The notes beneath the pieces were generated by a model. It did not search any database. It worked only from the letters and a program-made list of their open reading frames with translations, and was not told where the DNA came from. Made by a program: the position numbers and the translations under genes. Below, piece by piece: positions 1 through 55,515 of a DNA stretch of 64,000 nt. Each line of letters begins with the position of its first letter. Positions within the stretch are counted from its first letter, which is position 1. Source of the stretch: Escherichia phage vB_EcoM_EP57; the sequence record OR544956. One strand, given 5' to 3'.

Positions 1-47
1 TTTGTCGGTAGATAACTTGGTAGTATTTGTAGCAGTATTCGCAAGTT

Positions 48-686
48 TTGGTATTAAAAGCACACACTTGCAGCACAATAGGCACTTACTTGTTAAGTTT
101 GGGCTGGTATGTTAATATCTTCTTCGGTGCGGTCATCCTTTTCTGTGCAGCTAAAATGGTATTTGCTGGAGATAATGACGCAGAAGTTGATTACTCTAAA
201 CACTGGGCTACCCGTATTGTTCGTAAACTGTTCCCTGTATCTAATAAAATGGATGGGGAGAAGTTCTTCACAATCGAAAATGGTGTTCGTGTAGCAACTC
301 CAGCTTTGGTTTGCGTATTCGTGATGGAAATGGTGGATGTAATCTTTGCAGTAGATTCGGTTCCAGCGGTGATCGCAGTGACACAAGAACCCCTGCTTGT
401 ATTCTCTTCGATGTTATGTGCAATCTTAGGTCTACGTGCTCTGTTCTTTGTTCTTAGTGTCGCACTGAAGTATCTGGTTCACTTGGAGAAAGCAGTTATT
501 GTGGTTCTGGTGTTTGTAGGCGTTAAACTGATGTATCACCCGTTTGCAGAAACATTGCATGAGAAAATGAGTTTCCTGCCAGCACATATTGATCCAACTA
601 TTAGTATGTATATCGTGCTTGGTACTTTGGCCCTTGGTGTTATTGCAAGCTTTATCTTCCCTGAAAAAGAAGAAGCTACTGTTTAA
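48..686 (+). CDS. terC: TerC-family integral membrane protein, C-terminal part; the N-terminal part (LSVDNL motif) reads in another frame from position 2 and the gene starts upstream of the window
   Basis: Translation contains the second TerC signature VDVIFAVDSVPAVIAVT...FSSMLCAILGLRALFF; frame 2 at positions 2-112 reads LSVDNLVVFVAVFASFGIK; the two frames overlap at 48-115. Confidence 0.6.
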   Translation: MVLKAHTCSTIGTYLLSLGWYVNIFFGAVILFCAAKMVFAGDNDAEVDYSKHWATRIVRKLFPVSNKMDGEKFFTIENGVRVATPALVCVFVMEMVDVIFAVDSVPAVIAVTQEPLLVFSSMLCAILGLRALFFVLSVALKYLVHLEKAVIVVLVFVGVKLMYHPFAETLHEKMSFLPAHIDPTISMYIVLGTLALGVIASFIFPEKEEATV

Positions 687-692
687 TAAATG

Positions 693-717
693 AGCCTCCT
701 TCGGGAGGCTATTTTAT
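693..717 (+). terminator. Intrinsic terminator after terC
   Basis: agcctcc-ttcg-ggaggct hairpin followed by attttat. Confidence 0.5.
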
Positions 718-728
718 AGGAGAGACTT

Positions 729-1079
729 ATGAGTAATTTTGATGAAATTCAAGAACTTGTTTGGGATTTATCTGGTGATGTGGATTACATTTCAGATTAT
801 CTTTCAAAAGTTTACCCTGGGGTAAGCGTTATGATTGTGACCAAAGATCCAATTAATTTGCCTCCTAATGTTGTAGCTTGTTGTGGAAGTGGTTCAGGAG
901 AAGTAGAGCCTGTATCTCGTTGGGAATTAACTAAAGCTGTTTCAAAACGAAACGGTGAAGTTTTGAATATTGATATTGAGCAAATATGGACTTCTCCAGC
1001 AGCCAAATGGAATGATCCAAATGGTTGGGATTTGTTCTTCTGGGATAATGAGACTGATGATGAGGTGTTTTTAAAATGA
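729..1079 (+). CDS. Hypothetical protein
   Basis: ORF with ATG start preceded by ggagag; no recognisable motif. Confidence 0.4.
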   Translation: MSNFDEIQELVWDLSGDVDYISDYLSKVYPGVSVMIVTKDPINLPPNVVACCGSGSGEVEPVSRWELTKAVSKRNGEVLNIDIEQIWTSPAAKWNDPNGWDLFFWDNETDDEVFLK

Positions 1080-1146
1080 AATACTTGTTGGTTGTGTTTG
1101 AAAATATCTGTTTTGCAATAGGGTTGTTTGTTGTAATTTTTGTATT

Positions 1147-1175
1147 GACAAGCGTAATCAACGGCAGTAAAGTGA
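1147..1175 (+). promoter_or_regulatory. Candidate sigma70-like promoter (TTGACA-17-TAAAGT)
   Basis: TTGACA at 1147-1152 and TAAAGT 17 nt downstream, upstream of the lipoprotein gene. Confidence 0.3.
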
Positions 1176-1262
1176 GTTTATACCGAGATGGAGAGCAACT
1201 TTATTGCTTCTCTGGAGATTTCAAACACAGATGTATTAATAGCCAAAACGAGGAAAGCAAAT

Positions 1263-1700
1263 ATGAAAAAACTAGCCCTGATTTTAATTGGTTGTATCTT
1301 TTTAACAGCTTGCGAGGATGAAACAAATCCTGCACAATACCAACAACCTCCTCAACAATACGCTCAACAAGGATCTGACGGAGATACAACTATTATCAAC
1401 AATGGTGGCGGTTCTAGTAGTAGCGGTGTTGGTGAGTTTGCTACAGGTATGTTGTTAGGGCATATGATGAGTGGCGGTAGTAATCGTAGCAGTGGGGATT
1501 ATAACGATAACAGAACGATTATTAATAAGCATTATAATACACCTAAACCGAAAACTAATTTTTATGGTAAGCCTAAACAAGAGATAAAAACTTATGAAAA
1601 GCCGAGACAAACTTTTAAAACAAATAGTAGCTATACAACTCGTAAATCTTACAATAGCCCTTTAAGTAAAAAGAGTTCATCTCGTAGCAAGCGACGTTAA
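1263..1700 (+). CDS. Putative lipoprotein (signal peptide with lipobox LTAC, Gly/Ser-rich, basic C-terminus)
   Basis: Internal ATG at 1263 preceded by gaggaaag; MKKLALILIGCIFLTAC; the track ORF 1188..1700 is the same frame with an earlier start. Confidence 0.5.
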   Translation: MKKLALILIGCIFLTACEDETNPAQYQQPPQQYAQQGSDGDTTIINNGGGSSSSGVGEFATGMLLGHMMSGGSNRSSGDYNDNRTIINKHYNTPKPKTNFYGKPKQEIKTYEKPRQTFKTNSSYTTRKSYNSPLSKKSSSRSKRR

Positions 1701-1714
1701 TAAGGAGAAAAACA

Positions 1715-2308
1715 ATGACAATTTCTATTCGTACTTCCATCGTAGGTGTTAAAAGGTTGCCTAATGCTTTGCAAATCACACGCGCTTTGAGGGATACATT
1801 CTCTGCTGTGGACGAGCATAAGATGCTTGATAATCTTTCAAATTGGCCCTATTTCCATTATTTTAAAAATGAAGATGACGAGTTTATAGACGCTGTTTCT
1901 TATGGTTATGATTTCGGTAAGGAGGTTTCTGCTGAAGAATTTGTAGCTATGGTGTTCCCAAACGGTTTGCCTACTCGCAGTAAACGTAAAAAAGGACCAA
2001 AAAACAAGAAACGTGCTACTAATAAAGCTACCATTTTCTTTACTGATGGCACACAATATACGATTAAAGATTTTGAAGAGGTATCTTATACAGCAGGTGG
2101 GAATCTTTCTTTCTACACCATCAAAAAACAAAACTCTACGTTCAGCCATGTTTCTAACATGATTGAAATGTTAGTAGAAGATATTGAAAGCGTAGCTGTG
2201 TTAGGTATGCATAAAAGCTTTTTAATTACAAATATTTCAGATTTCAGTGCAAGTTTATCTGGCCCTGATTTTGAAGCCACGACCACGCATTTCGCTTTTA
2301 AGGTGTAA
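1715..2308 (+). CDS. Hypothetical protein
   Basis: ORF with aggagaaaaacaATG ribosome-binding context. Confidence 0.45.
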   Translation: MTISIRTSIVGVKRLPNALQITRALRDTFSAVDEHKMLDNLSNWPYFHYFKNEDDEFIDAVSYGYDFGKEVSAEEFVAMVFPNGLPTRSKRKKGPKNKKRATNKATIFFTDGTQYTIKDFEEVSYTAGGNLSFYTIKKQNSTFSHVSNMIEMLVEDIESVAVLGMHKSFLITNISDFSASLSGPDFEATTTHFAFKV

Positions 2309-2311
2309 GTT

Positions 2312-2902
2312 ATGCATACCGAGAGAGACTTGCAACTCTTGTGGTGGGAAGTGATGCAGGAAATAAAAGAAGATTTTCCTGTTTACTACAACATGTTACG
2401 TGAAGCAGGATATAAAGCTTGTGTTAGAAACAAAGTGAATAACTCTTTCGGTTGGTGCAACTACCGAGATAAAATTGTTGTTGTAAATTGGCACTTGCAT
2501 AAGAACTCCACAAGAGATATGATCGTGGATACAATGAAGCACGAAATTGCTCATGCTATTGATGGTTGTATGGGTAAGTTTAGTAGGCACGGTGCTCATT
2601 GGCAAAAACTGGCAGCAGAATTAGGGGCTAATCCTAAAGCCACTTCCAAAGAGCCGTTGAACCACGAATATAAATATGTTCTTGTTCTGGTAGATAGGTT
2701 TGCGACAAGATGTGTTAGAGGTTATAATCGTAAACCTAATCGCATGTACCCAGGTAAGCAACCTAATATGTGGTTGAAATCAGATAAAGAAGGGACCGAA
2801 GGAAAATTATGGTTGTATAAATGGGACGATTGGGTTAAAGTAGCTAAAGAGTACGGTGTTTCACCATATATAAGAGATGCAGAAGAGGAGAATGAAGAAT
2901 GA
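2312..2902 (+). CDS. SprT-like zinc metallopeptidase domain protein (putative)
   Basis: HEIAH motif in a context (KHEIAHAIDGCMGKFSRHGAHW) resembling SprT-family proteins. Confidence 0.4.
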   Translation: MHTERDLQLLWWEVMQEIKEDFPVYYNMLREAGYKACVRNKVNNSFGWCNYRDKIVVVNWHLHKNSTRDMIVDTMKHEIAHAIDGCMGKFSRHGAHWQKLAAELGANPKATSKEPLNHEYKYVLVLVDRFATRCVRGYNRKPNRMYPGKQPNMWLKSDKEGTEGKLWLYKWDDWVKVAKEYGVSPYIRDAEEENEE

Positions 2903-4011
2903 CAAGTCCATTTTTAAAAGCAGCTACTGGTGGTCAGAAGAAGCCTGAAATGAGCGTATTTGCTGCAACAACAGATGCAAGTAAATCTGTATTCGCTCCA
3001 AGCGTGTTAGATGCCAGTCCTGTTTATGCACCAGCGGCACCGCAAGAAGTTCCAGTTTTGCCTTCTATGACCCGACAAGAGATCGAAGAGATTGGGGCAG
3101 AGGCAGGAACAACCTTGCGTTCCTTGAATGCCGAGGTATTAAAACATCAACGTAGTAATCAAGGCGATCAGATGAGTGAACGACTCACAGCTTTGATTAA
3201 ACAGGCAAAACAACTTGATCCAAACTCTATTAAACAAAGCAAGGGTATTACTAAACTCATTAAAAAAGTTATGGGTATGAAAGAAGACCTGTTTGGGGAG
3301 TTTGATAATGTTAATAACCGTATTGAAGAGTTGGTAAAGAACCTTCAAATGGATATTCGCAAAGAAGAAGATTCCTTGGTATATCTTGAAAAGCTACATC
3401 AAGCTATTGGACAATATGCTGCAAGTTTGAACCGAGATATGCAGCTTCTAACAGCAACCTATGAAAAAGAAGAACAAGCTTTGGCTGCTCTTCCAGAAGA
3501 TGCAGTAGAACAGCGACAAGTGATCCGAGATACTTTGGATCTTCTGGAGATTCGTATTGCAGATTTAAAAGCATTGCGCCTACTGTGTGTCCAAATGGGA
3601 CCGCGTGTACAAGGTATGCAAAAAGTTTCTGCAAGCTTAATGCGATCTGCGCGTAACATAGTAAATAATGTTATTCCTGCTTACTCTGCTAACTTCTCAA
3701 TGTATATAGAGAGCTTACGTCAAATGAAAGCAGCAGAGACGCAGAATAACGTTCTTGATGAATTTAACCTGGCAATTAAACTGGGTAGCGATCTTGCCAC
3801 ACAGAATCAGATCGAAGCAGCAGCACTGGCTAACCGTCAAGTGTTGGATATTGAAACTCTGCGTCACGATCAGGAAAACTTGGTTAAGATGTTGGAAGAA
3901 ACTAACCGCATCAATACGGAAGCCCGTGCTGCTCGTGTTGATTATATTAATGAAGTTCAATCTCTGGAAGACGGGATGGTAGCTGCTGTGAAACGAGGGC
4001 TTGGTAAATGA
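2899..4011 (+). CDS. TelA-like coiled-coil protein (putative toxic-anion-resistance family)
   Basis: 370 aa, coiled-coil rich; pattern LKALRLLCVQMGPRVQGMQKV ... LDIETLRHDQENLVKMLEE resembles TelA/KlaA family; sits inside a Ter-like gene cluster. Confidence 0.4.
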   Translation: MTSPFLKAATGGQKKPEMSVFAATTDASKSVFAPSVLDASPVYAPAAPQEVPVLPSMTRQEIEEIGAEAGTTLRSLNAEVLKHQRSNQGDQMSERLTALIKQAKQLDPNSIKQSKGITKLIKKVMGMKEDLFGEFDNVNNRIEELVKNLQMDIRKEEDSLVYLEKLHQAIGQYAASLNRDMQLLTATYEKEEQALAALPEDAVEQRQVIRDTLDLLEIRIADLKALRLLCVQMGPRVQGMQKVSASLMRSARNIVNNVIPAYSANFSMYIESLRQMKAAETQNNVLDEFNLAIKLGSDLATQNQIEAAALANRQVLDIETLRHDQENLVKMLEETNRINTEARAARVDYINEVQSLEDGMVAAVKRGLGK

Positions 4012-4545
4012 GAATCCGTATCTATATAATTGATGAAGACATTGGTGTCCGTTATGATGACGAAAAACGATTCGCACCGATGGGAGGTATATATCCCCCA
4101 AGTGTTCTAGCAGTTTGTCGTGATTGTTATATTTATGAAGGTTGTCGTAACTTCCGTAAATTCGAACTCCTTGCAGATATTGACTTCAATGAGGAGGAGG
4201 AGTAATGAAAATATTACGAGTGAATATTGAAACTGCTTGGTGTGGATGCAATGAGGTTGTGGATATCGAAATTGAAGATGATATGTCTCAAGAGGATATA
4301 GAAGATCTTGCGCACGAAACCTTTCAGGATTATTGTAATTACGGGTTCCATATTTTAGAGGAGGAAGAAGATGTTTAATTGACTCGACAGGAACTGATCA
4401 CAATCATTGAAGATGCTTTTATTGATGGCTGGAATACACAAGATAATGACTGGGGTGGACCCGAAGCTTTTCTGGAACATCATAAAACTTATGGAGACTC
4501 TTGTGAAACCACTGTAGCTCTTGATAATCTGAAGGAGGGTTTGTA

Positions 4546-5109
4546 ATGGGTTGTTTTAGCTTTTTGTGCAAAGAATCGGGCAAAGCTGCCCTTTCTACTT
4601 CTTTCGACGGATCACCTTGCTACCTCTTTCTTTTGAAGGACGGTGTTGTTATTGAAGAGATGTATGGCAACTATGATAGTTATGGTTGTGTTTTCTCTGG
4701 AAAGGAGGATGAAAACGGCGTTCGTGAACGATTTGAATGGGCTATGGATTGGGGTAAGGTTTGTGATTTGATGCATTCCTCAAATCCAAGGGACGGTATC
4801 GCTATGGTGCTGGAAGAGTACTTTACAGGTGAAATCCCTACAGAACAATCTGACGGAGATCCTAACCAAGGTTGGGGTGATGGTGAAGAAGATCCAGATT
4901 GTTTTTTCAGCACAGAAAAGAATAAGTTTAAACGTGTTGACAACCCTTATCACAAAGTGCATAATACTCTCATTGAAACAGAAGATGACAAGATGGAAAT
5001 TGAAGAAGATGATCCTCTTGTAACACTTCCTGTAAGTGAGTTACAAAAGATCACTAAGGAAGCTTACGATTTGGGCTTCAAAATTGGTAGAGGAGGTATG
5101 CGTGTTTAG
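4546..5109 (+). CDS. Hypothetical acidic protein
   Basis: ORF track; ggagggtttgtaATG context. Confidence 0.35.
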   Translation: MGCFSFLCKESGKAALSTSFDGSPCYLFLLKDGVVIEEMYGNYDSYGCVFSGKEDENGVRERFEWAMDWGKVCDLMHSSNPRDGIAMVLEEYFTGEIPTEQSDGDPNQGWGDGEEDPDCFFSTEKNKFKRVDNPYHKVHNTLIETEDDKMEIEEDDPLVTLPVSELQKITKEAYDLGFKIGRGGMRV

Positions 5110-5380
5110 ATTCAATATTCAAGAAGAAAAAAGTCAGGATTTACCTATTGCTTTCGAAGATCTTGACGTAGGGGCCACATTCATGTATTATGATGCCTAT
5201 GAAGACGCAGGGTTGGATACCTACCGTAACTTGGTGTTCATTAAAAATTCCACAAACAGTGCGATCTGTATTAATGGATCACTAGCACAACGAGGCTATA
5301 CTCATTGCATCCCACCAGATACAAATATGGTGGAAGTAGATTTAGAAGTTACCAATATTACACTTAAGAAGGAGAAATAA
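5102..5380 (+). CDS. Small conserved protein, paralog A (shares DLDVGxTF ... EVxLxVTxITLK with 6402..6671)
   Basis: GTG start at 5102 after ggtagaggaggt; paralogous to 6402..6671. Confidence 0.4.
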   Translation: MFRFNIQEEKSQDLPIAFEDLDVGATFMYYDAYEDAGLDTYRNLVFIKNSTNSAICINGSLAQRGYTHCIPPDTNMVEVDLEVTNITLKKEK

Positions 5381-5381
5381 T

Positions 5382-6176
5382 ATGTCCGAGAAAATCAGCC
5401 TGAAAAAACGTCAAGAAAACCTTGCTTTCTCTCTGAAAAAGAATAAGAACCTGAATGAAGGTAAGATTGTTCTTCGTGTAGCATGTGCTCTAGATATTTC
5501 TGGTAGTATGCATGGTCTATATTCTAGTGGGGTAGTGAGTGATTTTGTAGGTAAACTGCTTCCTTTTGGTATGCTGTTCGACGATAATCAACAAATTGAT
5601 ATGTGGGCCTTCAATACGAGTTCCCAAGAGCTTACTCCAGCAACAGCAGATGTTTACGATGACTATGTTGGTAAATGTATGCGTAATGTTCGTATCGGAG
5701 GTGGAACAAATTACGCCCCTGTAATGGCGGATATCTACGATGAGTATTTTGGCACTGTTACTAAATATATTACCACTAAACAAGTGGTACAAGAGGAGGC
5801 TCCAAAGAAAGGTTTCTTTAATCGTCTACTTGGTAAAACTGAAACAGTATCTGTAGAGCGTGAAAAGGTCGTAGCTGTATCTGAACCAGGTGCTGACGTT
5901 ACCCCTGGTGTTGTATTCTTCCAGACAGACGGTGAGAATGGTGATCCTAGTGCTGTTCGTCGTCTTATCGAAGAGAATAAGAATAAACCTATTTATTGGT
6001 TCATGGTTGGCGTTGGTAATGAGAAGTTTGGCTTCCTGAAAGAACTGGCAAATGCTTATGATAATGTTGGTTTTATTGGCATTAAAGATTTAGACTTGAC
6101 AGATTCAGAGCTTTATGACAAACTCTTATCTGAAGAGTTCGGAGAGTGGGTTGTTAAAGTAGGTGCTAAAAAATGA
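5382..6176 (+). CDS. von Willebrand factor A domain protein (TerY-like)
   Basis: MIDAS-like motif VACALDISGSM near the N-terminus; located next to TerD. Confidence 0.5.
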   Translation: MSEKISLKKRQENLAFSLKKNKNLNEGKIVLRVACALDISGSMHGLYSSGVVSDFVGKLLPFGMLFDDNQQIDMWAFNTSSQELTPATADVYDDYVGKCMRNVRIGGGTNYAPVMADIYDEYFGTVTKYITTKQVVQEEAPKKGFFNRLLGKTETVSVEREKVVAVSEPGADVTPGVVFFQTDGENGDPSAVRRLIEENKNKPIYWFMVGVGNEKFGFLKELANAYDNVGFIGIKDLDLTDSELYDKLLSEEFGEWVVKVGAKK

Positions 6177-6421
6177 TCGACGAGCTTGCCTCTCAAGTCA
6201 TAGAAAATTATTGGCGCGAGAGAGAAGCTTTCATTATGCGCAGTCTCAAAGAGTATTTCATTGGGACTGTGCGAATGGAAGATATTGTAAGTAGAGTAGA
6301 GATTCATGTATGGCCCGATTATGAAGAATGGGTTGACAAAGAAAATGAAAATGCTATAATTCTTCGTATATACAAACCGGAGATAACATTAGGAGGAAGA
6401 AGTGTTAAACTTCGAAATTGA
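6173..6421 (+). CDS. Hypothetical protein
   Basis: ORF overlapping the upstream stop (ATGA). Confidence 0.35.
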   Translation: MIDELASQVIENYWREREAFIMRSLKEYFIGTVRMEDIVSRVEIHVWPDYEEWVDKENENAIILRIYKPEITLGGRSVKLRN

Positions 6422-6671
6422 TGAGCAAAAAGTAAATAAACGATGCCTTACCATTAAAGATTTGGATGTAGGAGATACTTTCGTCTATGAAAATGCATTT
6501 GACGAAAATGGTTTAGACCTTAGTGAAATCATTGTTTATTTAAAAGTAGATGATGGGGAAAATGATTATTCTGCTGTAGAACTAAACCATCATGCACAAT
6601 TAGTATCAATCCAAAACACATCTAAGCTTTTGGAAGTAGAATTGACTGTAACTGGTATTACACTTAAATAA
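6402..6671 (+). CDS. Small conserved protein, paralog B
   Basis: Paralog of 5102..5380; ggaggaagaaGTG context. Confidence 0.4.
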   Translation: MLNFEIDEQKVNKRCLTIKDLDVGDTFVYENAFDENGLDLSEIIVYLKVDDGENDYSAVELNHHAQLVSIQNTSKLLEVELTVTGITLK

Positions 6672-6686
6672 TAGAGGAGACAAAAG

Positions 6687-7289
6687 ATGACTGATAAAAT
6701 TTCCCTGAAAAAAGGCTCTAGCGAAAAAATTTCCCTGAAGAAAGTTGCTCCGGCTCTGAAAGAACTACGCCTGGAATTCTCTTGGAAATCTGATTCTAAA
6801 CTAGATCTGGATGTAAGTGCACTGGTTTGTCGTCACAATGCCGCTGGCAATCCTGAAATGCTGTCTGCACGTCATCTGGTTTGCTATGCTAACAAGTTTG
6901 ATCCTGAACGTTCTACCTTCGCTGGTGACGATGTTCGTGATGGAACTGGCAGCATGGAGCAGATTGATATTACTCTGGCTAAAATCTCTCCTGATGCACA
7001 AGAGATTGCCTTTGTTCTGACCATTGATGATGATACAGGTCTGAAACGTTTTGGTCATGCTTCTGAAGGTATGCTTAAAATCTTCGACTCCGAGCGCAAT
7101 GTGGAAATTCTGGATTTTGACTTCCTGGCTCCTGAAGTAGCTGGCAACACAATCTGCCACGTGGCTTCCTTGGTTCGTGAAGATGGGGAATGGAAGCTGA
7201 AAGCATATGGTGTAGGTAAAGCTGGTCTGGATATTTGTGATGTGGTGATGGCCTTCGGTGGTAAAAAAGAATGGTATGAATGTCCGTAA
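6687..7289 (+). CDS. terD: TerD-family protein (tellurium-resistance TerD/TerZ/TerE-like)
   Basis: ISLKKGSSEKISLKK, DLDVSAL, IAFVLTIDD and EDGEWKLKAYGVGKAGL align with my recollection of E. coli TerD (SLSKGGNVSLSK, DLDASAF, IIFVVTIHD, NGEWKFRAVGQGYAGGL). Confidence 0.8.
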   Translation: MTDKISLKKGSSEKISLKKVAPALKELRLEFSWKSDSKLDLDVSALVCRHNAAGNPEMLSARHLVCYANKFDPERSTFAGDDVRDGTGSMEQIDITLAKISPDAQEIAFVLTIDDDTGLKRFGHASEGMLKIFDSERNVEILDFDFLAPEVAGNTICHVASLVREDGEWKLKAYGVGKAGLDICDVVMAFGGKKEWYECP

Positions 7290-7307
7290 TAATTAACAAA
7301 TGATTTT

Positions 7308-7327
7308 GAGGGGGAGAAATCCCCCTC
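7308..7327 (+). terminator. GC-rich hairpin gaggggg-agaaat-ccccctc after terD (terminator or conserved stem-loop)
   Basis: 7-bp G/C stem; a similar element occurs at 23447-23464. Confidence 0.4.
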
Positions 7328-7388
7328 TTGCAATAAAGCCTCTATCGTGTTATACTAGAAATTCGTTAACTTAAAAAGGAGGCAAAAT

Positions 7389-7910
7389 TTGCTGATAAAA
7401 AACTTTGTAACAGTTGCGTTACTATCCTTAACTGCTTTTACATTTACACCTGTTGTGGCGAAAGCCGAAGCTGCAAACGTAAAAACCGCTAAAGTAGTTC
7501 ACAAATGTACAAAGCAATATAATGATAAAATTCTATTAGCTTGTGCAATTTACGCAGAAGGTCGCGGTCTGGGTAAAAAAGGAATGAATGCCGTTGGGAA
7601 TGTGGTAATCAACAGAAGAAATGATACCTACTTCCCTAACACAGTCAGAGGAGTCTTGTTCCAGAAAGGGCAATTCTCATATGCGAAAACTTTTAACGTA
7701 ACAGAGAAAGATAAGTGGCAGGAAGCAAAAGCAATAGCGGAGCGTTTACTTTATTTAGAGAAACATTTTCCTGAATTGCGGTCTGTTTTAGATGTTACTA
7801 AAGGTGCTCTATACTTCAAGAAACGGAATATAAGAACACACTGGGAACGTGATATGCGTCTTGTTTATCGAGATAAAGTGCATGGTTTCTATCTACCAAA
7901 GGGGAGTTAA
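7389..7910 (+). CDS. Cell-wall hydrolase, SleB/CwlJ-like, with N-terminal signal peptide (candidate endolysin)
   Basis: Signal peptide MLIKNFVTVALLSLTAF; motif LACAIYAEGRGLG...NVVINR typical of Hydrolase_2 family. Confidence 0.5.
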   Translation: MLIKNFVTVALLSLTAFTFTPVVAKAEAANVKTAKVVHKCTKQYNDKILLACAIYAEGRGLGKKGMNAVGNVVINRRNDTYFPNTVRGVLFQKGQFSYAKTFNVTEKDKWQEAKAIAERLLYLEKHFPELRSVLDVTKGALYFKKRNIRTHWERDMRLVYRDKVHGFYLPKGS

Positions 7911-8605: not shown

Positions 8606-9169
8606 ATGATTTATTATATTACTCCCTATCTGACAGGAAATATCGGCAAGGCTATCAATGAAGCCATTGCCGTTCTTCCAGATGATAGTTGGGTGTGTTT
8701 AAGAGATACCGATACAATGTTCCTCCTACCTGATCAACCATCTATGCTTGAAGAGCTTGTTATGTCAAACCCGCCTTTTGATGTAATAGGTGCAACTTGT
8801 AACAGGTTAGGCAGTGGTTATCAGCTTTTCTCTAACCAAATTAACGATGATCCAGATATTCTAAACCATATAGAATATGCTAAGATTGCAAGAGAATATC
8901 ATAAAGTAAATGTTGAAGAAGTTCCTTTCGGAACACCTCTGGCAGGTTTCTTTTTGCTTTTTAGAAAATCATTGTGGAATGAAATTCCTTTTGAAGAAAA
9001 ATCTATCCAATTCGACTTAATTTTCTCTCGCACTTTACATGAAAAAGGAAAGAGGTTAGGATTGATGCGGGGAATGTATCTGTTTCACATTTACAGATTA
9101 GGTCAAACAAATCCTCAACGGTCTATACATCATTTATTACACTGTCATGATCACAGTAAAACTATTTAG
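8606..9169 (+). CDS. Putative glycosyltransferase-like protein
   Basis: N-terminal pattern NIGKAINEAIAVLPDDSWVCLRDTDTMF resembles GT-A nucleotide-sugar transferases; first gene of a glycosyltransferase block. Confidence 0.3.
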   Translation: MIYYITPYLTGNIGKAINEAIAVLPDDSWVCLRDTDTMFLLPDQPSMLEELVMSNPPFDVIGATCNRLGSGYQLFSNQINDDPDILNHIEYAKIAREYHKVNVEEVPFGTPLAGFFLLFRKSLWNEIPFEEKSIQFDLIFSRTLHEKGKRLGLMRGMYLFHIYRLGQTNPQRSIHHLLHCHDHSKTI

Positions 9170-9177
9170 GAGAGAAA

Positions 9178-9861
9178 ATGGAAAATATTAAAATCGGAGT
9201 GGGTGTTATCACTGTAGGTGTCCGTCCGCTTAAAGACTACCTTGTAACAGATCCACGTGCAGATTTTCGAGTATTCAACGATCCAGATCGTAAAGGTGTA
9301 GCTTATGCCAGGAATGAACTTATGCACCAGTTTTATGAAGAAGGTTATGATTATTGGTTTATTTTTGACGACGATTGCTACCCAGTCATGGAGGGATGGG
9401 AAACATATTTTGTAGATCAAGCTGTCTCTGGAGGATGGGATTTCTTTGGTATGCCGGAGTACTTCAAAGATAAAGTTGTTGGAAGCAAAGGAGAAGTTAT
9501 TCTCTGGGAACTTGCAATGTGTCAATTTGCAATGTATTCTCGTGCCGTTGTTGAGAAGATGGGTTATTTCCGTCCTTACACTCACGGTTATGGTTTTGAA
9601 GATGCTGAATGGGGACACCGTTTGCAAGCTGCTGGTTTGAATCATGGTATTCAGGCAACACCTTGTCCACTTCGTATCATGGCTTATATCCACCCAGACG
9701 ATGTTTTTGGAAACAATCCTATGCCTTTTGCTAATCTGACAAAAGAAGAGAAAGAAGCTGCTATTGGGATTAACTGGGAAGAATATAAAGCATCTTTAGA
9801 GGATATTAAAAATGGGAAAATCCGAATTTCCTATGAGGAGGCACTAGCACATGTCAAATAA
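9178..9861 (+). CDS. Glycosyltransferase, GT-A fold (family 2-like)
   Basis: GVRPLKDYL...AYARNELM...DYWFIFDDDCYP (DxD-type motif). Confidence 0.5.
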   Translation: MENIKIGVGVITVGVRPLKDYLVTDPRADFRVFNDPDRKGVAYARNELMHQFYEEGYDYWFIFDDDCYPVMEGWETYFVDQAVSGGWDFFGMPEYFKDKVVGSKGEVILWELAMCQFAMYSRAVVEKMGYFRPYTHGYGFEDAEWGHRLQAAGLNHGIQATPCPLRIMAYIHPDDVFGNNPMPFANLTKEEKEAAIGINWEEYKASLEDIKNGKIRISYEEALAHVK

Positions 9862-10798
9862 AAAATGGTCTAAACTAAAAATTGATGCAAAACCTCACAG
9901 CGGTTGTGACTATCATCGTATTGTTATGCCATTTAACAACAATAATATTCAACCTAAGAAAGATGCTGTTGTGTTTAACCGTATCCACTCTAAAGGTGCA
10001 GAATACGTTTTATCTTTGAAACGTCAAGGTGTTAAGATTGTTGTAGATTTAGATGATTTCTACCAACTTAATCCAGAACATTATTTAGCAAGTCTATACG
10101 AGTCAAACACTCATGCTATTGTAGCTATGGTTAAGCTTGCGGATGTGGTTATTGTGACTACGGAATATTTGGCATATAAGATCCGTCACTTAAATAGGAA
10201 TGTTGTTGTGATCCGAAATGCACTTCCTTTTGATAGTGGACAATTCACTTTGTCAAATGATCGTTCATCCGGTACCCCTGTTGTATGGGCTGGCGGTGCT
10301 AGTCACGAACCAGACTTACGACTAGTCTCTAATACTTTCGATGATGAACTTCTTACTATTGCGGGATATGAAACATCACAAAGCATCACGGGACAAGAGT
10401 GGATTAAGATTCGCAGAAATTTACCAAATGCTAAATATAAAGCCGCTGTAAAAGATTTAGATAATTACATGAGTGTTTACGAAAGTCATGCTATTGCTAT
10501 AGCTCCTTTGGTAGATAACGATTTTAATAATTGTAAAAGTAATCTCAAAATCCTGGAAGCTGGAGCAAAAGGTATTCCAATTGTTTGTTCTAAGGTATTA
10601 CCTTATTTTAACCCTGTAGATGCTCGCGCTGTTGCTTACGCAGAGAATAAAGCAGAATGGCATTACGAAATTGTTAAGCTTCTTCGCAATCCAAACTATC
10701 GGGAAGATCGTGGCTTGTTCTTGGCTGAACATGTTCGAACACATTATAATCTGGCAGATGCAAACGAGTTGCGACGCCAGGTTATTGAAAGTTTGTAG
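9851..10798 (+). CDS. Glycosyltransferase, GT-B-like, tandem paralog 1
   Basis: Paralogous to 10806..11750 over the full length; C-terminal NNCKSNLKILEAGAKGIPIVCS resembles the GT-B nucleotide-sugar binding motif. Confidence 0.5.
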   Translation: MSNKKWSKLKIDAKPHSGCDYHRIVMPFNNNNIQPKKDAVVFNRIHSKGAEYVLSLKRQGVKIVVDLDDFYQLNPEHYLASLYESNTHAIVAMVKLADVVIVTTEYLAYKIRHLNRNVVVIRNALPFDSGQFTLSNDRSSGTPVVWAGGASHEPDLRLVSNTFDDELLTIAGYETSQSITGQEWIKIRRNLPNAKYKAAVKDLDNYMSVYESHAIAIAPLVDNDFNNCKSNLKILEAGAKGIPIVCSKVLPYFNPVDARAVAYAENKAEWHYEIVKLLRNPNYREDRGLFLAEHVRTHYNLADANELRRQVIESL

Positions 10799-10805
10799 GT
10801 GAAGT

Positions 10806-11750
10806 ATGGGACAAATAATTCTTGACAATCGTAACGGAATCAATTATAGTGTCTGCGATTTCCATAGGGTAGTGCTGCCTTACTCAAGGCAGTTCTCTTC
10901 ACAACCTAAACACAACGTTTTCGTTTTTAACGGGGTGCCAACAAAAGGTAAAGAGGGCTTTTTAGCCCTTAAAAACCTAGGCTTTAAAATGGTTATGGAT
11001 TTGGATGACTCTTTAGTTATTCCAAAAGGACACATGTTAGAAGGTATTTTTGAATCAGGTATTCGTGAACATTTAAAATGGTTTTTAGAGCACAGCGATC
11101 TTGTTACAACTACGACACCTGCTTTGCAAGTTGAACTTTCACAATACAATGATAATGTGCACATAATCCCTAATGGACTTCCTTACGATGAAGGTCAATT
11201 TGTGTTGACCCGTGATCGCTACTCCAAAACTCCATTAGTCTGGGCTGGAAGTGAAACACATAAACAAGATTTGGCTATCTTGCCCGATTTTGGTAAAGAT
11301 CTTACAATATGTGGTTTTCGTAGGGATTCTGAAGTTTTAAGTAGTCGTGAATGGTCTGTGATCAGAGAAAATGTAGCACCAACTTGTGTTTATGAAGGTG
11401 TAAGACCATATGCCAACTACATGGAATCTTACGATGGTCATCAAATCAGTCTTGCGCCATTGATTGATAACGTGTTTAATAATGCAAAAAGCAATCTTAA
11501 AATTCTTGAGGCAGGTGCTAAGGGTTTACCTTTGATTTGTTCTCCTCGTGAGAATTATCATACACAAGAGTTTAAAGATTTGTTATTCTTTGCTGAAACA
11601 CCTTCCGAGTGGAAAGATATTACGGAATACTTATTAAGTGCTCCCGATGTTTGCATGGAGAAAGGATTAGCATTAGCTAAGTATGTCAGGACTCATTATC
11701 ACATTGATGTGTTGAATGAGCGTCGTAGACTTTTATTTGAGGAGCTATAA
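10806..11750 (+). CDS. Glycosyltransferase, GT-B-like, tandem paralog 2
   Basis: NNAKSNLKILEAGAKGLPLICS; about 35-40 percent identity to paralog 1 by eye. Confidence 0.5.
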   Translation: MGQIILDNRNGINYSVCDFHRVVLPYSRQFSSQPKHNVFVFNGVPTKGKEGFLALKNLGFKMVMDLDDSLVIPKGHMLEGIFESGIREHLKWFLEHSDLVTTTTPALQVELSQYNDNVHIIPNGLPYDEGQFVLTRDRYSKTPLVWAGSETHKQDLAILPDFGKDLTICGFRRDSEVLSSREWSVIRENVAPTCVYEGVRPYANYMESYDGHQISLAPLIDNVFNNAKSNLKILEAGAKGLPLICSPRENYHTQEFKDLLFFAETPSEWKDITEYLLSAPDVCMEKGLALAKYVRTHYHIDVLNERRRLLFEEL

Positions 11751-53553: not shown

Positions 53554-53632
53554 TGGAGGCGGGAATTGGATTTGAACCAATGATCTCCAGCATATGAAAC
53601 TGGCGAGGACGACCAGACTCCTCTATCCCGCT
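53554..53632 (-). tRNA. tRNA with anticodon CAT (Met or Ile2)
   Basis: Manual fold: T-arm ATTGG-TTCAAAT-CCAAT, anticodon loop TTCATAT, CCA encoded; 1-72 is an A-C mismatch. Confidence 0.55.
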
Positions 53633-53638
53633 ATTATG

Positions 53639-53708
53639 TATCCCGTGCTGGATTCGAACCAGCATCACAATAAGCTGTGGAACTCTTATCCTGTAAGTCT
53701 AACGGGAA
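53639..53708 (-). tRNA. tRNA-like element, unassigned (anticodon arm cannot be folded; possibly degenerate)
   Basis: Good T-arm GCTGG-TTCGAAT-CCAGC and acceptor pairing, but only about 70 nt. Confidence 0.3.
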
Positions 53709-53710
53709 AC

Positions 53711-53784
53711 TGGTTGTTTCGACAAGAATCGAACTTGTGTCTCACGATTATCAGTCGTGGGTTCTACCATTGAACTACGAAACA
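53711..53784 (-). tRNA. tRNA-Ile (anticodon GAT)
   Basis: Perfect acceptor, T-arm and anticodon stem; loop CTGATAA; CCA encoded. Confidence 0.7.
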
Positions 53785-53790
53785 TTAAAT

Positions 53791-53867
53791 TGGTCGGAAT
53801 TGCAGGATTCGAACCTGCGACCCTACGCTCCCAAAGCGTATGCTCTACCAAACTGAGCTAAATTCCG
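53791..53867 (-). tRNA. tRNA-Pro (anticodon TGG)
   Basis: Perfect cloverleaf; anticodon loop TTTGGGA; CCA encoded. Confidence 0.7.
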
Positions 53868-53960
53868 TCATAACATTCTAAAGGTACACCGCAAAAGAAA
53901 GTGTTCGGCGGCTCCTCGTTTTTAACTTCACACTTGAGGTAGTGACTCACCTTTGTTATA

Positions 53961-54036
53961 TGGCTGGTCTGTCTGGATTTGAACCAAACCTACGACAGTC
54001 AAAGTGTCGTGTGCTACCGGACTACACTACAAACCA
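53961..54036 (-). tRNA. tRNA-Gln (anticodon TTG)
   Basis: Cloverleaf with anticodon loop CTTTGAC; CCA encoded. Confidence 0.65.
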
Positions 54037-54134
54037 ATAAATCATTTAATGAAGGGCAACCAGAAGAGGTGTGAGAGAAGGAGAAAACCATGAGTAAAAG
54101 AGAAAGTTTTCTGGCAACCCTTTATTAAATAATT

Positions 54135-54208
54135 TGGAGCGTTCTACGAGGATCGAACTCGTGCCGCCGACTTGGAAGGACGGAATGCTACCGCTACACC
54201 AAGAACGC
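54135..54208 (-). tRNA. tRNA-Gly (anticodon TCC)
   Basis: Acceptor GCGTTCT/AGAACGC, anticodon loop CTTCCAA; one mismatch in the anticodon stem. Confidence 0.55.
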
Positions 54209-54219
54209 CCTACATCTTT

Positions 54220-54249
54220 ACTATACTACATTTTACTATTGGTTGTCAA
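54220..54249 (-). promoter_or_regulatory. tRNA-operon promoter 1 (CTATTGACAA-18-TATAGT)
   Basis: Minus strand; -10 ends about 11 nt before the tRNA-Gly 5' end. Confidence 0.55.
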
Positions 54250-54524
54250 TAGTTTTATTGAGTGGGACAGTGACGAGTATCCCGTTGGGTGACTAGCCCT
54301 ACGTTCGGTAAGCTAACTTAAAATAATACAAAACCAAAGTCAAATATTATTCTTCGTTGCTGTCGATGGGAGAGCCGCTTCTCATTTTGCCCCATCCAAC
54401 CCTACTCCGGTCAAGTTTCGGGTAACTCTTTTTGTGTGATCAACACAATACTAAGAACACTGTCTTTCGAACAGACCTTGTGCACAGGATACGACGATCA
54501 ATCACAGTGCTCTTAATGTTGTGT

Positions 54525-54599
54525 TGGTGCTCCCACACTGAATCGAACAGAGATCCACGGATTACAAAACCGTTGTAATAGCCATTATACTATAGGAGC
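54525..54599 (-). tRNA. tRNA-Thr (anticodon TGT)
   Basis: Anticodon loop TTTGTAA; minor stem mismatches. Confidence 0.5.
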
Positions 54600-54605
54600 A
54601 AAGCT

Positions 54606-54682
54606 GGGACTCGGCAGGATTCGATACCTGCAATTCCAGAAGCCTCTTGGCGACTGGGGGTTTACCTTAACTCTACAAGTCC
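54606..54682 (-). tRNA. tRNA-like element, unassigned (T-arm near-identical to tRNA-Pro but with an 8-nt loop; no foldable anticodon arm)
   Basis: gcaggattcgatacctgc versus gcaggattcgaacctgc in tRNA-Pro. Confidence 0.3.
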
Positions 54683-54689
54683 ATAATTC

Positions 54690-54775
54690 TGGCGATGAGT
54701 ATAGGATTTGAACCTATATCGTTCTTTCGAACACGGATTAACAGTCCGCCGCTTAAACCATTCAGCCAACTCATC
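54690..54775 (-). tRNA. Class II (long variable arm) tRNA with anticodon GTT
   Basis: Perfect acceptor GATGAGT/ACTCATC, T-arm ATAGG-TTCAAAT-CCTAT, extra arm GTTC-GAAA-GAAC, anticodon loop CTGTTAA. Confidence 0.45.
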
Positions 54776-54781
54776 TTAATT

Positions 54782-54869
54782 TGGTGGTGAGTGATGGAGT
54801 TGAACCACCCGAATCGCAATGATAACAGATTTACAGTCTGCCCCGCTACCCCTACGGAATTAACTCACC
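54782..54869 (-). tRNA. tRNA-Tyr (anticodon GTA), class II
   Basis: Anticodon arm CAGA-CTGTAAA-TCTG as in E. coli tRNA-Tyr; 88 nt. Confidence 0.6.
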
Positions 54870-54947
54870 TAAATACTAATATTTAAATTCTTTTTAAAAT
54901 AGCCAGTGTTCACACCACTAACTATGTAAGCCATATTAAAAAGAACT

Positions 54948-55033
54948 TGGCGGTAGATGTAGGACTCGAACCTACACGCCGTTTCCGACTACAGTTTAGC
55001 AAACTGTCGTGGCTACCATTTCACCAATCTACC
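54948..55033 (-). tRNA. tRNA-Ser (anticodon GCT), class II
   Basis: Anticodon arm ACAGT-TTGCTAA-ACTGT; long variable arm. Confidence 0.65.
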
Positions 55034-55038
55034 TAATC

Positions 55039-55129
55039 TGGCGGAAGGAGGGAGAGTCGAACTCCCAAGGCTCTTTCAAGCTCGGCGGTTTTCAAGACCG
55101 TTTTCGTCGCCACGTCGATTTGCCCTTCC
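55039..55129 (-). tRNA. tRNA-Ser (anticodon TGA), class II
   Basis: Anticodon loop CTTGAAA; long variable arm; 91 nt. Confidence 0.55.
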
Positions 55130-55137
55130 ATACTTAT

Positions 55138-55167
55138 AATCTAACATAAAATAATGTTTGTTGTCAA
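55138..55167 (-). promoter_or_regulatory. tRNA-operon promoter 2 (CTATTGACAA-18-TAGATT)
   Basis: Minus strand; -10 ends about 9 nt before the tRNA-Ser(TGA) 5' end. Confidence 0.5.
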
Positions 55168-55363
55168 TAGTTTTTTAAAACATTTTACCATGAATGGTGA
55201 CTCCACCAACCCCCGTTCTCCACGAACGGTGCTCTTCGAGCATTTATGTCTTCTAATATAACCGTGGCCTTTGTTTATAATGTCTGACATACTTGCCTCA
55301 TTCTCTGCCACCATGATCAGTAGTGGGTTCAAATTACTTGAGCTAATTCATGTTAAAATGTTC

Positions 55364-55438
55364 TGGTGTCTTTACAAGGAATCGAACCTTGACTAAGAGT
55401 TTAGAAGACTCCTGTGCTATCCATTACACCATAAAGAC
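55364..55438 (-). tRNA. tRNA-Arg (anticodon TCT)
   Basis: Anticodon loop CTTCTAA; acceptor GTCTTTA/TAAAGAC. Confidence 0.6.
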
Positions 55439-55440
55439 GT

Positions 55441-55515
55441 TGGTGGCCCTGGCTGGTTTCGATCCAGCTACCTATCGGTTATGAGCCGACAGCTCTCCCA
55501 TTGAGCTACAGGGCC
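55441..55515 (-). tRNA. tRNA with anticodon CAT (Met or Ile2), second copy
   Basis: Acceptor GGCCCTG/CAGGGCC, D-stem GCTC/GAGC, anticodon loop CTCATAA. Confidence 0.6.

Follow-up and report, generated by a model that had tools for sequence, protein, structure and literature searches.

Ter-type genes in the window of Escherichia phage vB_EcoM_EP57: an abbreviated set shared with phAPEC8-like and phi92-like phages

The window analysed here is a stretch of 64,000 nucleotides from Escherichia phage vB_EcoM_EP57 (record OR544956), and its first 7.3 kb contain four genes of the Ter type: a TerC gene, which is frameshifted in this genome, and the genes for a TelA-family protein, a vWA protein and a TerD-domain protein. 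Almost certainly, these genes belong to the abbreviated Ter system of all phAPEC8/phi92-like phages. This system consists of a TerC membrane protein of the ter-operon type, a soluble all-helical TelA, a TerF-type vWA protein with an intact metal ion-dependent adhesion site (MIDAS), and one TerD β-sandwich; TelA, vWA and TerD are under purifying selection, a pair of PRTase_3 and HAD-like genes lies upstream in the relatives, and the set is located in the replication arm of the genome. An earlier note, made from the sequence alone, had described a Ter-like module on a lytic-looking phage. The description of a Ter-like module on a phage of the virulent type is correct, and the TerC, TelA, vWA, TerD and SprT-like domains proposed there were all recovered in profile searches. 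The Pfam scores were well over the curated cut-offs.

The Ter genes

All features described below are on the plus strand unless otherwise stated. The TelA gene (2899-4011) was assigned by its match to Pfam TelA (PF05816; 115.7 bits, E 3.2e-33), which covers residues 59-361 of 370, and it also belongs to phrog_5890. No transmembrane segment was found by hydropathy. The protein is predicted to be soluble and all-alpha, with two very long helices, in an AlphaFold2 (AF2) model having a pLDDT of 73 and a pTM of 0.45. A Foldseek search of this model against the PDB gave no match at E <= 0.001. The weak matches to parts of ClyA-family toxins, e.g. AhlC (E 0.014), seem to reflect a non-specific resemblance between long helices.

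The vWA protein (5382-6176) is of the TerF C-terminal type (Pfam PF10138, vWA-TerF-like; 130 bits, E 1.6e-37) and stands alone, without fusion to a TerD domain. The residues of the MIDAS are intact: DISGS (residues 38-42), GGGTNY and QTDGENGD. The protein had been labelled vWA/TerY-like. The vWA part of this label is right, but the TerY part is not, because the protein belongs to PF10138 and gave no match to the TerY-P model of PADLOC. In the TerY-P triad, the vWA protein TerY is combined with a PP2C phosphatase and a Ser/Thr kinase, neither of which was found among the open reading frames (ORFs) scanned; the likeness consists of a vWA protein linked by name to Ter.

The TerD-domain protein (6687-7289; Pfam TerD PF02342, 98.9 bits, E 3.2e-28) is encoded by a single-copy gene, with no paralogue elsewhere in the 64-kb window. 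It is related to the solved TerD structures 2KXT and 3IBZ (E 1e-15). In the alignment to these structures the DLD motif is kept, and the GDNxTGxGDGDDE loop is degenerate (GDDVRDGTGSME versus GDNRTGEGDGDDE); in other words, the acidic loop is partially lost. In bacterial TerD, this acidic loop binds Ca2+, as in the structure of the K. pneumoniae protein.

When the window was compared with phage ESCO13, TelA, vWA and TerD were each 100% identical at the protein level, with 5, 10 and 9 synonymous changes, respectively, and no non-synonymous change (24 versus 0 in sum). The dN/dS values of PRTase_3 and of two accessory genes, g187 and g116, were 0.02-0.04 in the same comparison (0.02 for g187). 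TelA, vWA and TerD are under strong purifying selection, and the near-absence of non-synonymous change means that these genes are functional in the lineage. It was considered whether the similarities arose by chance or whether the genes are functionless, decaying relics. The frameshift of TerC in this one sequence would fit such a reading, but the E-values of 1e-21 to 1e-37, the intact genes in ~132 genomes and the 24:0 substitutions leave practically no room for it, and it was rejected.

TerC had been placed at 48-686. This ORF of 212 codons does contain a TerC domain (Pfam TerC, 78 bits, E 9.4e-22; phrog_7180), but it spans only positions 49-177 of the 178 positions of the profile, and the intact homologue in the closely related Escherichia phage tuntematon has 324 residues. 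The ORF is a fragment of TerC, namely the C-terminal piece left after a 56-bp deletion, and not the whole gene. A remnant of the N-terminal half was identified at 2-112 (frame 2) by translation and alignment to intact TerC. The remnant, truncated on its 5' side by the edge of the window, begins LSVDNLVVFVAVFASFGIK and includes the conserved LSVDN motif; the TAA codon at its end arises from the frameshift.

The junction of the deletion is located at 79/80 in the alignment with tuntematon and ESCO13. The deleted 56 bp, which encode the transmembrane helix KILLWGIAGAIVFRGVFVAV, are kept in 67 of the 67 phage records matching window 1-190, and all of the ~132 related genomes have an uninterrupted TerC. 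The junction was absent from IMG/VR in an exact search. No Shine-Dalgarno sequence is evident ahead of the TTG start of ORF 48-686, so that the ORF is probably not expressed as such, and an intact TerC is not present in the window. Judging from the sequence, TerC is probably inactive in this genome, unless the deletion is an assembly error; the deletion is either such an error or a natural knockout. Because of the frameshift, the Ter system of this genome is probably crippled or TerC-independent. A terminator-like GC hairpin with a T-run (693-710) is found directly 3' of TerC.

TerC differs from the other components in its variation among phages. The window-type allele (~10 records) and the phAPEC8/ESCO13-type allele (60 records) share 73% identity, with a dN/dS of 0.19, and the genes flanking TerC are 98-100% identical between phages of the same genus that hold these two alleles. 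On the other hand, the window-type TerC and the Justusliebigvirus (phi92-type) allele are 95% identical in protein and 88% in DNA, whereas the neighbouring genes of the two genera share only 69-80% of their DNA sequence. The loci compared were window 1-690, L001 2768-3742, L002 2526-3500 and L010 8764-9741. TerC is far closer between the genera than its neighbouring genes, which indicates exchange of TerC alleles between genera. TerC is an allelic hot spot.

Occurrence in phages and comparison with bacterial ter loci

By sequence comparison, the window is assigned to Phapecoctavirus (subfamily Stephanstirmvirinae), that is, to the phAPEC8-like E. coli myoviruses with genomes of roughly 150 kb. 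Positions 1-7400 are 99.5% identical to tuntematon and 96-99% identical to about sixty other phAPEC8-like phages. Records MG065639, MG065645, MG065650, MG065656 and MG065689, named "Campylobacter phage", are also 96-99% identical to these E. coli phages, which suggests mislabelled hosts or contamination in the submissions. The structural genes are on the strand opposite to that of the Ter genes. The Ter region is preceded by anaerobic ribonucleotide reductase genes (nrdD/G) and followed by glycosyltransferase, primase/helicase and DNA polymerase genes; the module lies in the arm of the genome devoted to replication and nucleotide metabolism.

In tuntematon, a weak HAD-like hydrolase, PRTase_3 (PF15610, E 4.5e-42), a Macro-domain protein and a small ORF precede the 324-residue TerC in this order. 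The limits of 1-7289 given for the module in the earlier note are thus too narrow, since in relatives PRTase_3 and the HAD-like hydrolase are encoded just upstream of the left edge of the window. The phosphoribosyltransferase class, to which PRTase_3 belongs, was listed by Iyer et al. among the components of Ter signal biosynthesis (PMC7824862). PRTase_3 and a neighbouring HAD-like gene recur in Rhizobium, Caulobacter and Brevundimonas phages. Neither ATP-grasp, C-C lyase nor StiP was found by Pfam in the scanned module proteins or the upstream genes of tuntematon. Farther upstream in tuntematon, ahead of nrdD, gp083 (185 residues) and gp084 (462 residues), which occupy L003 7919-9857, are annotated as "histidyl tRNA synthetase" and "ribonucleotide reductase", respectively; neither gave a Pfam match at E <= 0.1, and these product names look unsupported.

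The occurrence of the components was surveyed by tblastn against 50,697 phage records. TelA matched 222 records, vWA 209, TerC 176, PRTase_3 156 and TerD 145. At an identity of at least 60%, each of the five matched ~131-132 records, corresponding to Phapecoctavirus and Justusliebigvirus including phi92, as tallied per query, with the lists not matched record by record. By these counts, the whole subfamily Stephanstirmvirinae carries the Ter set as a fixed feature. In FBKp34, a more distant relative, the genes are rearranged, but the gene set is the same: TerC-g116 ... vWA-TerD-TerD-x-TelA-hydrolase ... HAD-PRTase. Compact blocks of TelA, vWA, TerC and TerD are found in Pseudomonas Otagovirus, Caulobacter Bertelyvirus and Rhizobium Cuauhnahuacvirus. 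In an Acinetobacter phage, the block is TerD-x-vWA-TerC, and a helical protein of 419 residues encoded beside it showed no significant match to the TelA of the window.

Such sets have been described before. Phage Ter sets were discussed by Iyer et al. (PMC7824862, section 3.4.10), and the Ter genes of phiKp34 were described in PMC8386662 (section 3.5). For PhiPsa374, terC, terD, terF and telA were reported; their function was called unknown, and tellurite resistance was regarded as unlikely (PMC9796965). In the literature on phAPEC8 or Phapecoctavirus, only a one-line mention of these genes was found. Several public records already name them TerC, TelA-like, TerD/TerE or "tellurite resistance". 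The presence of the set had been called unusual for a phage, which is not borne out by the ~131-132 Stephanstirmvirinae records per component, the clusters in unrelated phages and the published descriptions. The abbreviated phage Ter set is real, already known and annotated, and the window adds no new component to it.

The set of the window resembles those of the PhiPsa374-like Otagovirus, phiKp34/FBKp34, the Caulobacter CbK-like and Brevundimonas jumbo phages and Acinetobacter vB_AbaM_ME3 (PMC9796965, PMC8386662, PMC7824862): TerC, TerD, a TerF-type vWA protein and TelA occur in virulent tailed phages, in several cases with PRTase_3 and HAD. However, the Caulobacter, Rhizobium and Pseudomonas phages have a tight TelA-vWA-TerC-TerD block, whereas the genes of the window are dispersed and TerC is frameshifted.

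Larger differences were seen in the comparison with the terZABCDEF operons of IncHI2 R478 and of Klebsiella plasmids such as pRJA166a. The order in the Klebsiella plasmid locus is terW-DUF4236-C-C_Bond_Lyase-StiP-x-PRTase_2-ATPgrasp_Ter / terZ-terA-terB-terC-terD-terE-(IS)-terF remnant-HAD. The nearest relative has an intact TerC that shares 47% identity with the plasmid ter-operon TerC (E 3e-102) and 35% with Alx of E. coli K-12. For this reason, capture of alx from the host was rejected as the origin of the phage gene. An Rfam scan of the tuntematon region upstream of TerC, where the intergenic gap is only ~80 nt, detected no yybP-ykoY Mn2+ riboswitch of the Alx type at the gathering threshold; only tRNAs were found, elsewhere in the window. 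Identity between the phage TerD and the plasmid TerD family is 31%. Both loci have a vWA protein of the TerF C-terminal type, which is a terF remnant in the plasmid. PRTase and HAD genes are associated with the plasmid locus and, in relatives of the window phage, with the phage set. However, the phage PRTase_3 and the plasmid PRTase_2 are different families without BLAST similarity, and TelA is in the phage set and not in the plasmid locus. In addition, the phage lacks TerB, TerZ, TerA, TerE, TerW, ATPgrasp_Ter, C-C_Bond_Lyase, StiP and DUF4236, and its gene order, for which a comparison with plasmid operons had been proposed, does not follow Z-A-B-C-D-E-F. As for TerB, no Pfam match was found in the 16 ORFs scanned in the window (1-7910) or in the upstream genes of tuntematon; dupB was checked against PHROGs and PADLOC only. 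The absence of TerB, TerZ/A/E, ATP-grasp, the lyase and StiP, together with the differing PRTase and the extra TelA, means that the phage set is a reduced and differently composed Ter set. To call it "near-complete" was an overstatement, as it has one TerD, no TerB and no ATP-grasp, C-C lyase or StiP, and TerC is frameshifted here.

TelA occurs alongside the TerC/TerD families in kilA/telAB of RK2, where TelA is KlaB, and in yceCDEFGH of Bacillus subtilis, which encodes three TerD-like proteins, the TerC-like YceF and the TelA-like YceH. In composition, the yce operon is the closest known bacterial arrangement to the phage set. The RK2 and yce arrangements are not known to contain a vWA protein, and they are plasmid or chromosomal stress operons, not early genes of a phage.

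The reduced composition also bears on whether the genes are cargo that benefits the host by resistance to tellurite or xenobiotics. The database names "tellurite resistance" point in this direction, TerC-TerD is cited as the minimal tellurite-resistance unit in PMC12054061, and xenobiotic resistance during pseudolysogeny was mentioned by Iyer et al. (PMC7824862). Nevertheless, such a role is very improbable: these are phages of the virulent type in which no lysogeny module is seen, they lack TerB and TerZ/A/E, and resistance conferred by the same incomplete set was judged unlikely by the authors of the PhiPsa374 study (PMC9796965).

Interleaved genes and promoters

The four Ter genes are spread over 7.3 kb and interleaved with twelve lineage-specific genes. 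The first of these, g116 (729-1079), encodes an acidic protein of 116 residues with an invariant ACCGxGxGE motif and a WDLFFWDNE tail. Its homologue in FBKp34, gp125 (phmmer E 1.7e-26), adjoins TerC in that distant relative, too. The AF2 model of g116 has a pLDDT of 86.5, yet the five models disagree, and no PDB match was found for it. It is followed by a protein of 81 residues (1076-1321), which has one N-terminal transmembrane helix by hydropathy and is annotated in tuntematon, and by a lipoprotein of 145 residues (1263-1700; phrog_21570). The proposal of a lipoprotein is supported by the lipobox LTAC (residues 14-17), with Glu at position +2; the protein has a low-complexity basic tail. The lipoprotein and the next gene product, of 197 residues (1715-2308; phrog_27550, no Pfam match), both have homologues in the Justusliebigvirus PD06. 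The SprT-like zinc metallopeptidase (2312-2902; Pfam SprT-like, E 4.2e-9) has an intact HEIAH motif at residues 77-81.

Downstream of TelA are three small acidic ORFs of 65, 57 and 55 residues (4008-4546), the third of which is at a variable spot: at window 4379, approximately 222 bp of tuntematon are missing, and the local ORF has 55 residues here, 132 in tuntematon and 67 in ESCO13. The very acidic g187 (187 residues; 4546-5109) belongs to phrog_14928 and has no Pfam match. The acidic dupA (92 residues; 5102-5380) is directly 5' of the vWA gene, and its PD06 homologue, gp071, is in the same position. A protein of 82 residues (6173-6421) was found by ORF calling. The acidic dupB (89 residues; 6402-6671; phrog_11278), with a GTG start after AGGAGG, is directly 5' of TerD. 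The pair of duplicated proteins of ~90 residues recognised in the earlier note corresponds to dupA and dupB, which are true paralogues (34% identity, E 2e-14). Small ORFs 5' of vWA in other phage lineages showed no detectable relation to either of them.

Two strong promoter-like sites are found in this region, both as consensus matches only. TTGACA-17-CATAAT (4937-4965) is a sigma-70-like site ahead of dupA-vWA, and TTGACA-16-TATAAT (6333-6360), a perfect sigma-70 site with a TG extension, is ahead of dupB-TerD. A promoter-like site directly 5' of TerD is also seen in PD06, and in the FBKp34 record a promoter is annotated at the corresponding position. Each of the two promoters precedes a pair of one paralogue and one Ter gene, which suggests a duplicated cassette of promoter and small gene.

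A SleB-type cell-wall hydrolase (endolysin; 7389-7910; Pfam Hydrolase_2, E 1.9e-17), with a cleavable-looking N-terminal signal sequence (...VAKAEA), follows TerD. In Phapecoctavirus, Justusliebigvirus and FBKp34 alike it adjoins the Ter genes or lies close to them, and it is regarded as a conserved neighbour of the module. Among the accessory genes, g116 and this hydrolase are the only ones still beside a Ter gene in FBKp34, and no others are common to distant phage Ter clusters; even these two are shared with FBKp34 only. NCBIfam named only TerC and, weakly, SprT. A PADLOC scan of ten module proteins gave no match to a defence system except a negligible SspF match of the SprT-like protein. 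Beyond the hydrolase, four glycosyltransferase-like genes follow in succession (8606-11750), the third (9851-10798) and fourth (10806-11750) being evident paralogues in tandem.

Possible function of the Ter set

The set might act as a membrane-associated complex that senses a metal or a ligand, is made early in infection, and excludes superinfecting phages and colicins. For this mechanism as a whole the chances are somewhat short of even. The Ter proteins would be synthesised early from host-type sigma-70 promoters and would assemble around TerC on the inner membrane as a complex sensing divalent metal or a ligand. The complex would shift the membrane and ion state, so that DNA entry by later phages and killing by pore-forming colicins would fail. 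The phage would thereby exclude superinfection and protect the cell it has infected, echoing the phage inhibition and colicin resistance of plasmid ter. The PRTase_3/HAD pair might supply a nucleoside-like ligand that is bound by TerD or vWA.

Early expression is proposed because of the sigma-70 promoters ahead of dupB-TerD (perfect) and dupA-vWA (near-perfect), with similar sites in PD06 and FBKp34, and because the neighbours of the module are nrdD/G, primase/helicase and polymerase genes, with the structural genes on the other strand. Also in favour of this reading, the same gene set outlasts rearrangement in FBKp34 and recurs in the compact clusters of other phages, and PRTase_3 with its HAD-like neighbour is found in the same lineages. 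As for the bacterial systems, phage inhibition and colicin resistance are lost upon insertion in terZ, terC and terD, and TerC-TerD is the minimal functional unit, both as cited in PMC12054061. Deletion of terC in K. pneumoniae led to larger plaques and to sensitivity to Zn, Mn and Te (PMC12054061). Superinfection exclusion by phage Ter sets was already proposed by Iyer et al. (PMC7824862). The suggestion in the earlier note, manipulation of a host membrane or chemical-stress pathway by the phage, is plausible and matches this published hypothesis.

Several points weigh against exclusion. Full-text literature searches yielded no experiment on any phage-borne Ter set, and no Ter-module protein matches a PADLOC defence model. 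The acidic loop of TerD is degenerate, the promoters rest on consensus matches, and the PRTase_3/HAD genes are not beside the Ter genes in every lineage. Furthermore, the genome tolerates a broken TerC, which means that TerC is not needed for propagation. This tolerance fits an accessory role in exclusion and equally fits a module that is dispensable as a whole in the laboratory.

In the main alternative, the set has a housekeeping role in ion balance and the envelope for the phage's own cycle. TerC, as a Mn/Zn-handling transporter of the TerC/Alx type, would hold the divalent-cation balance and membrane energisation together with TelA, vWA and TerD. This would support metal-dependent phage enzymes and keep the secreted SleB-type endolysin from being released or activated too early, so that the timing of lysis would be set. 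In NCBIfam, intact TerC falls into the TerC/Alx metal-homeostasis family (319 bits; cut-off, 246), Alx of E. coli is annotated as a Mn2+ exporter, and terC affects Zn and Mn tolerance (PMC12054061). The signal-bearing endolysin beside or near the Ter genes in three genera and the anaerobic ribonucleotide reductase genes nearby also agree with such a role. However, adjacency of the endolysin is seen in one subfamily only and not in the compact clusters of other phage families, so that it could be inherited synteny, and no holin or spanin was found in the module. Taken as one joint account of ion balance and lysis timing, the housekeeping role is rather unlikely.

The variation of TerC and the enzymes upstream of it raise the question of counter-defence. 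The phage proteins might mimic or titrate the Ter system or other membrane-acting abortive-infection systems of the host, or the PRTase_3, HAD and Macro enzymes might destroy or divert a nucleotide-derived alarm signal. Host ter operons do inhibit phages (PMC12054061, PMC7824862), TerC is an allelic hot spot swapped between genera, a pattern frequent in conflict genes, and the Macro domain adjoins PRTase_3. On the other hand, the module is retained universally although most laboratory hosts (K-12) lack a ter operon. The soluble components show almost no variation instead of diversifying, and no anti-defence precedent was found for these families. Counter-defence is therefore considered improbable.

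Returning to superinfection exclusion, a more far-reaching form of this proposal can be put forward, although it is doubtful. The quartet and PRTase_3/HAD might form a self-contained exclusion machine, gated by a small molecule and spread horizontally over at least five or six unrelated phage lineages, with TerC as the conflict-facing, rapidly exchanged component. Such a position of TerC would explain the 73%-identical alleles, the swaps between genera and the loss in the window genome. If this were true, the compact phage versions would be the simplest handle on Ter function, which has been an open question since 1995.

The biochemical function of Ter has been unsolved for ~30 years, though the systems are common in pathogens. 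The maintenance of a stripped-down set by virulent phages, under strong purifying selection, points to a core activity that has nothing to do with tellurite, and the phage set is a small, genetically tractable version of the Ter system. Two features are specific to the window. The TerC frameshift, in an otherwise 99.5% identical background, provides a near-isogenic comparison with tuntematon, and TerC alleles move between genera, in contrast to the almost invariant TelA, vWA and TerD.

Elsewhere in the window, 11 tRNA genes are clustered on the minus strand at 53557-55515.

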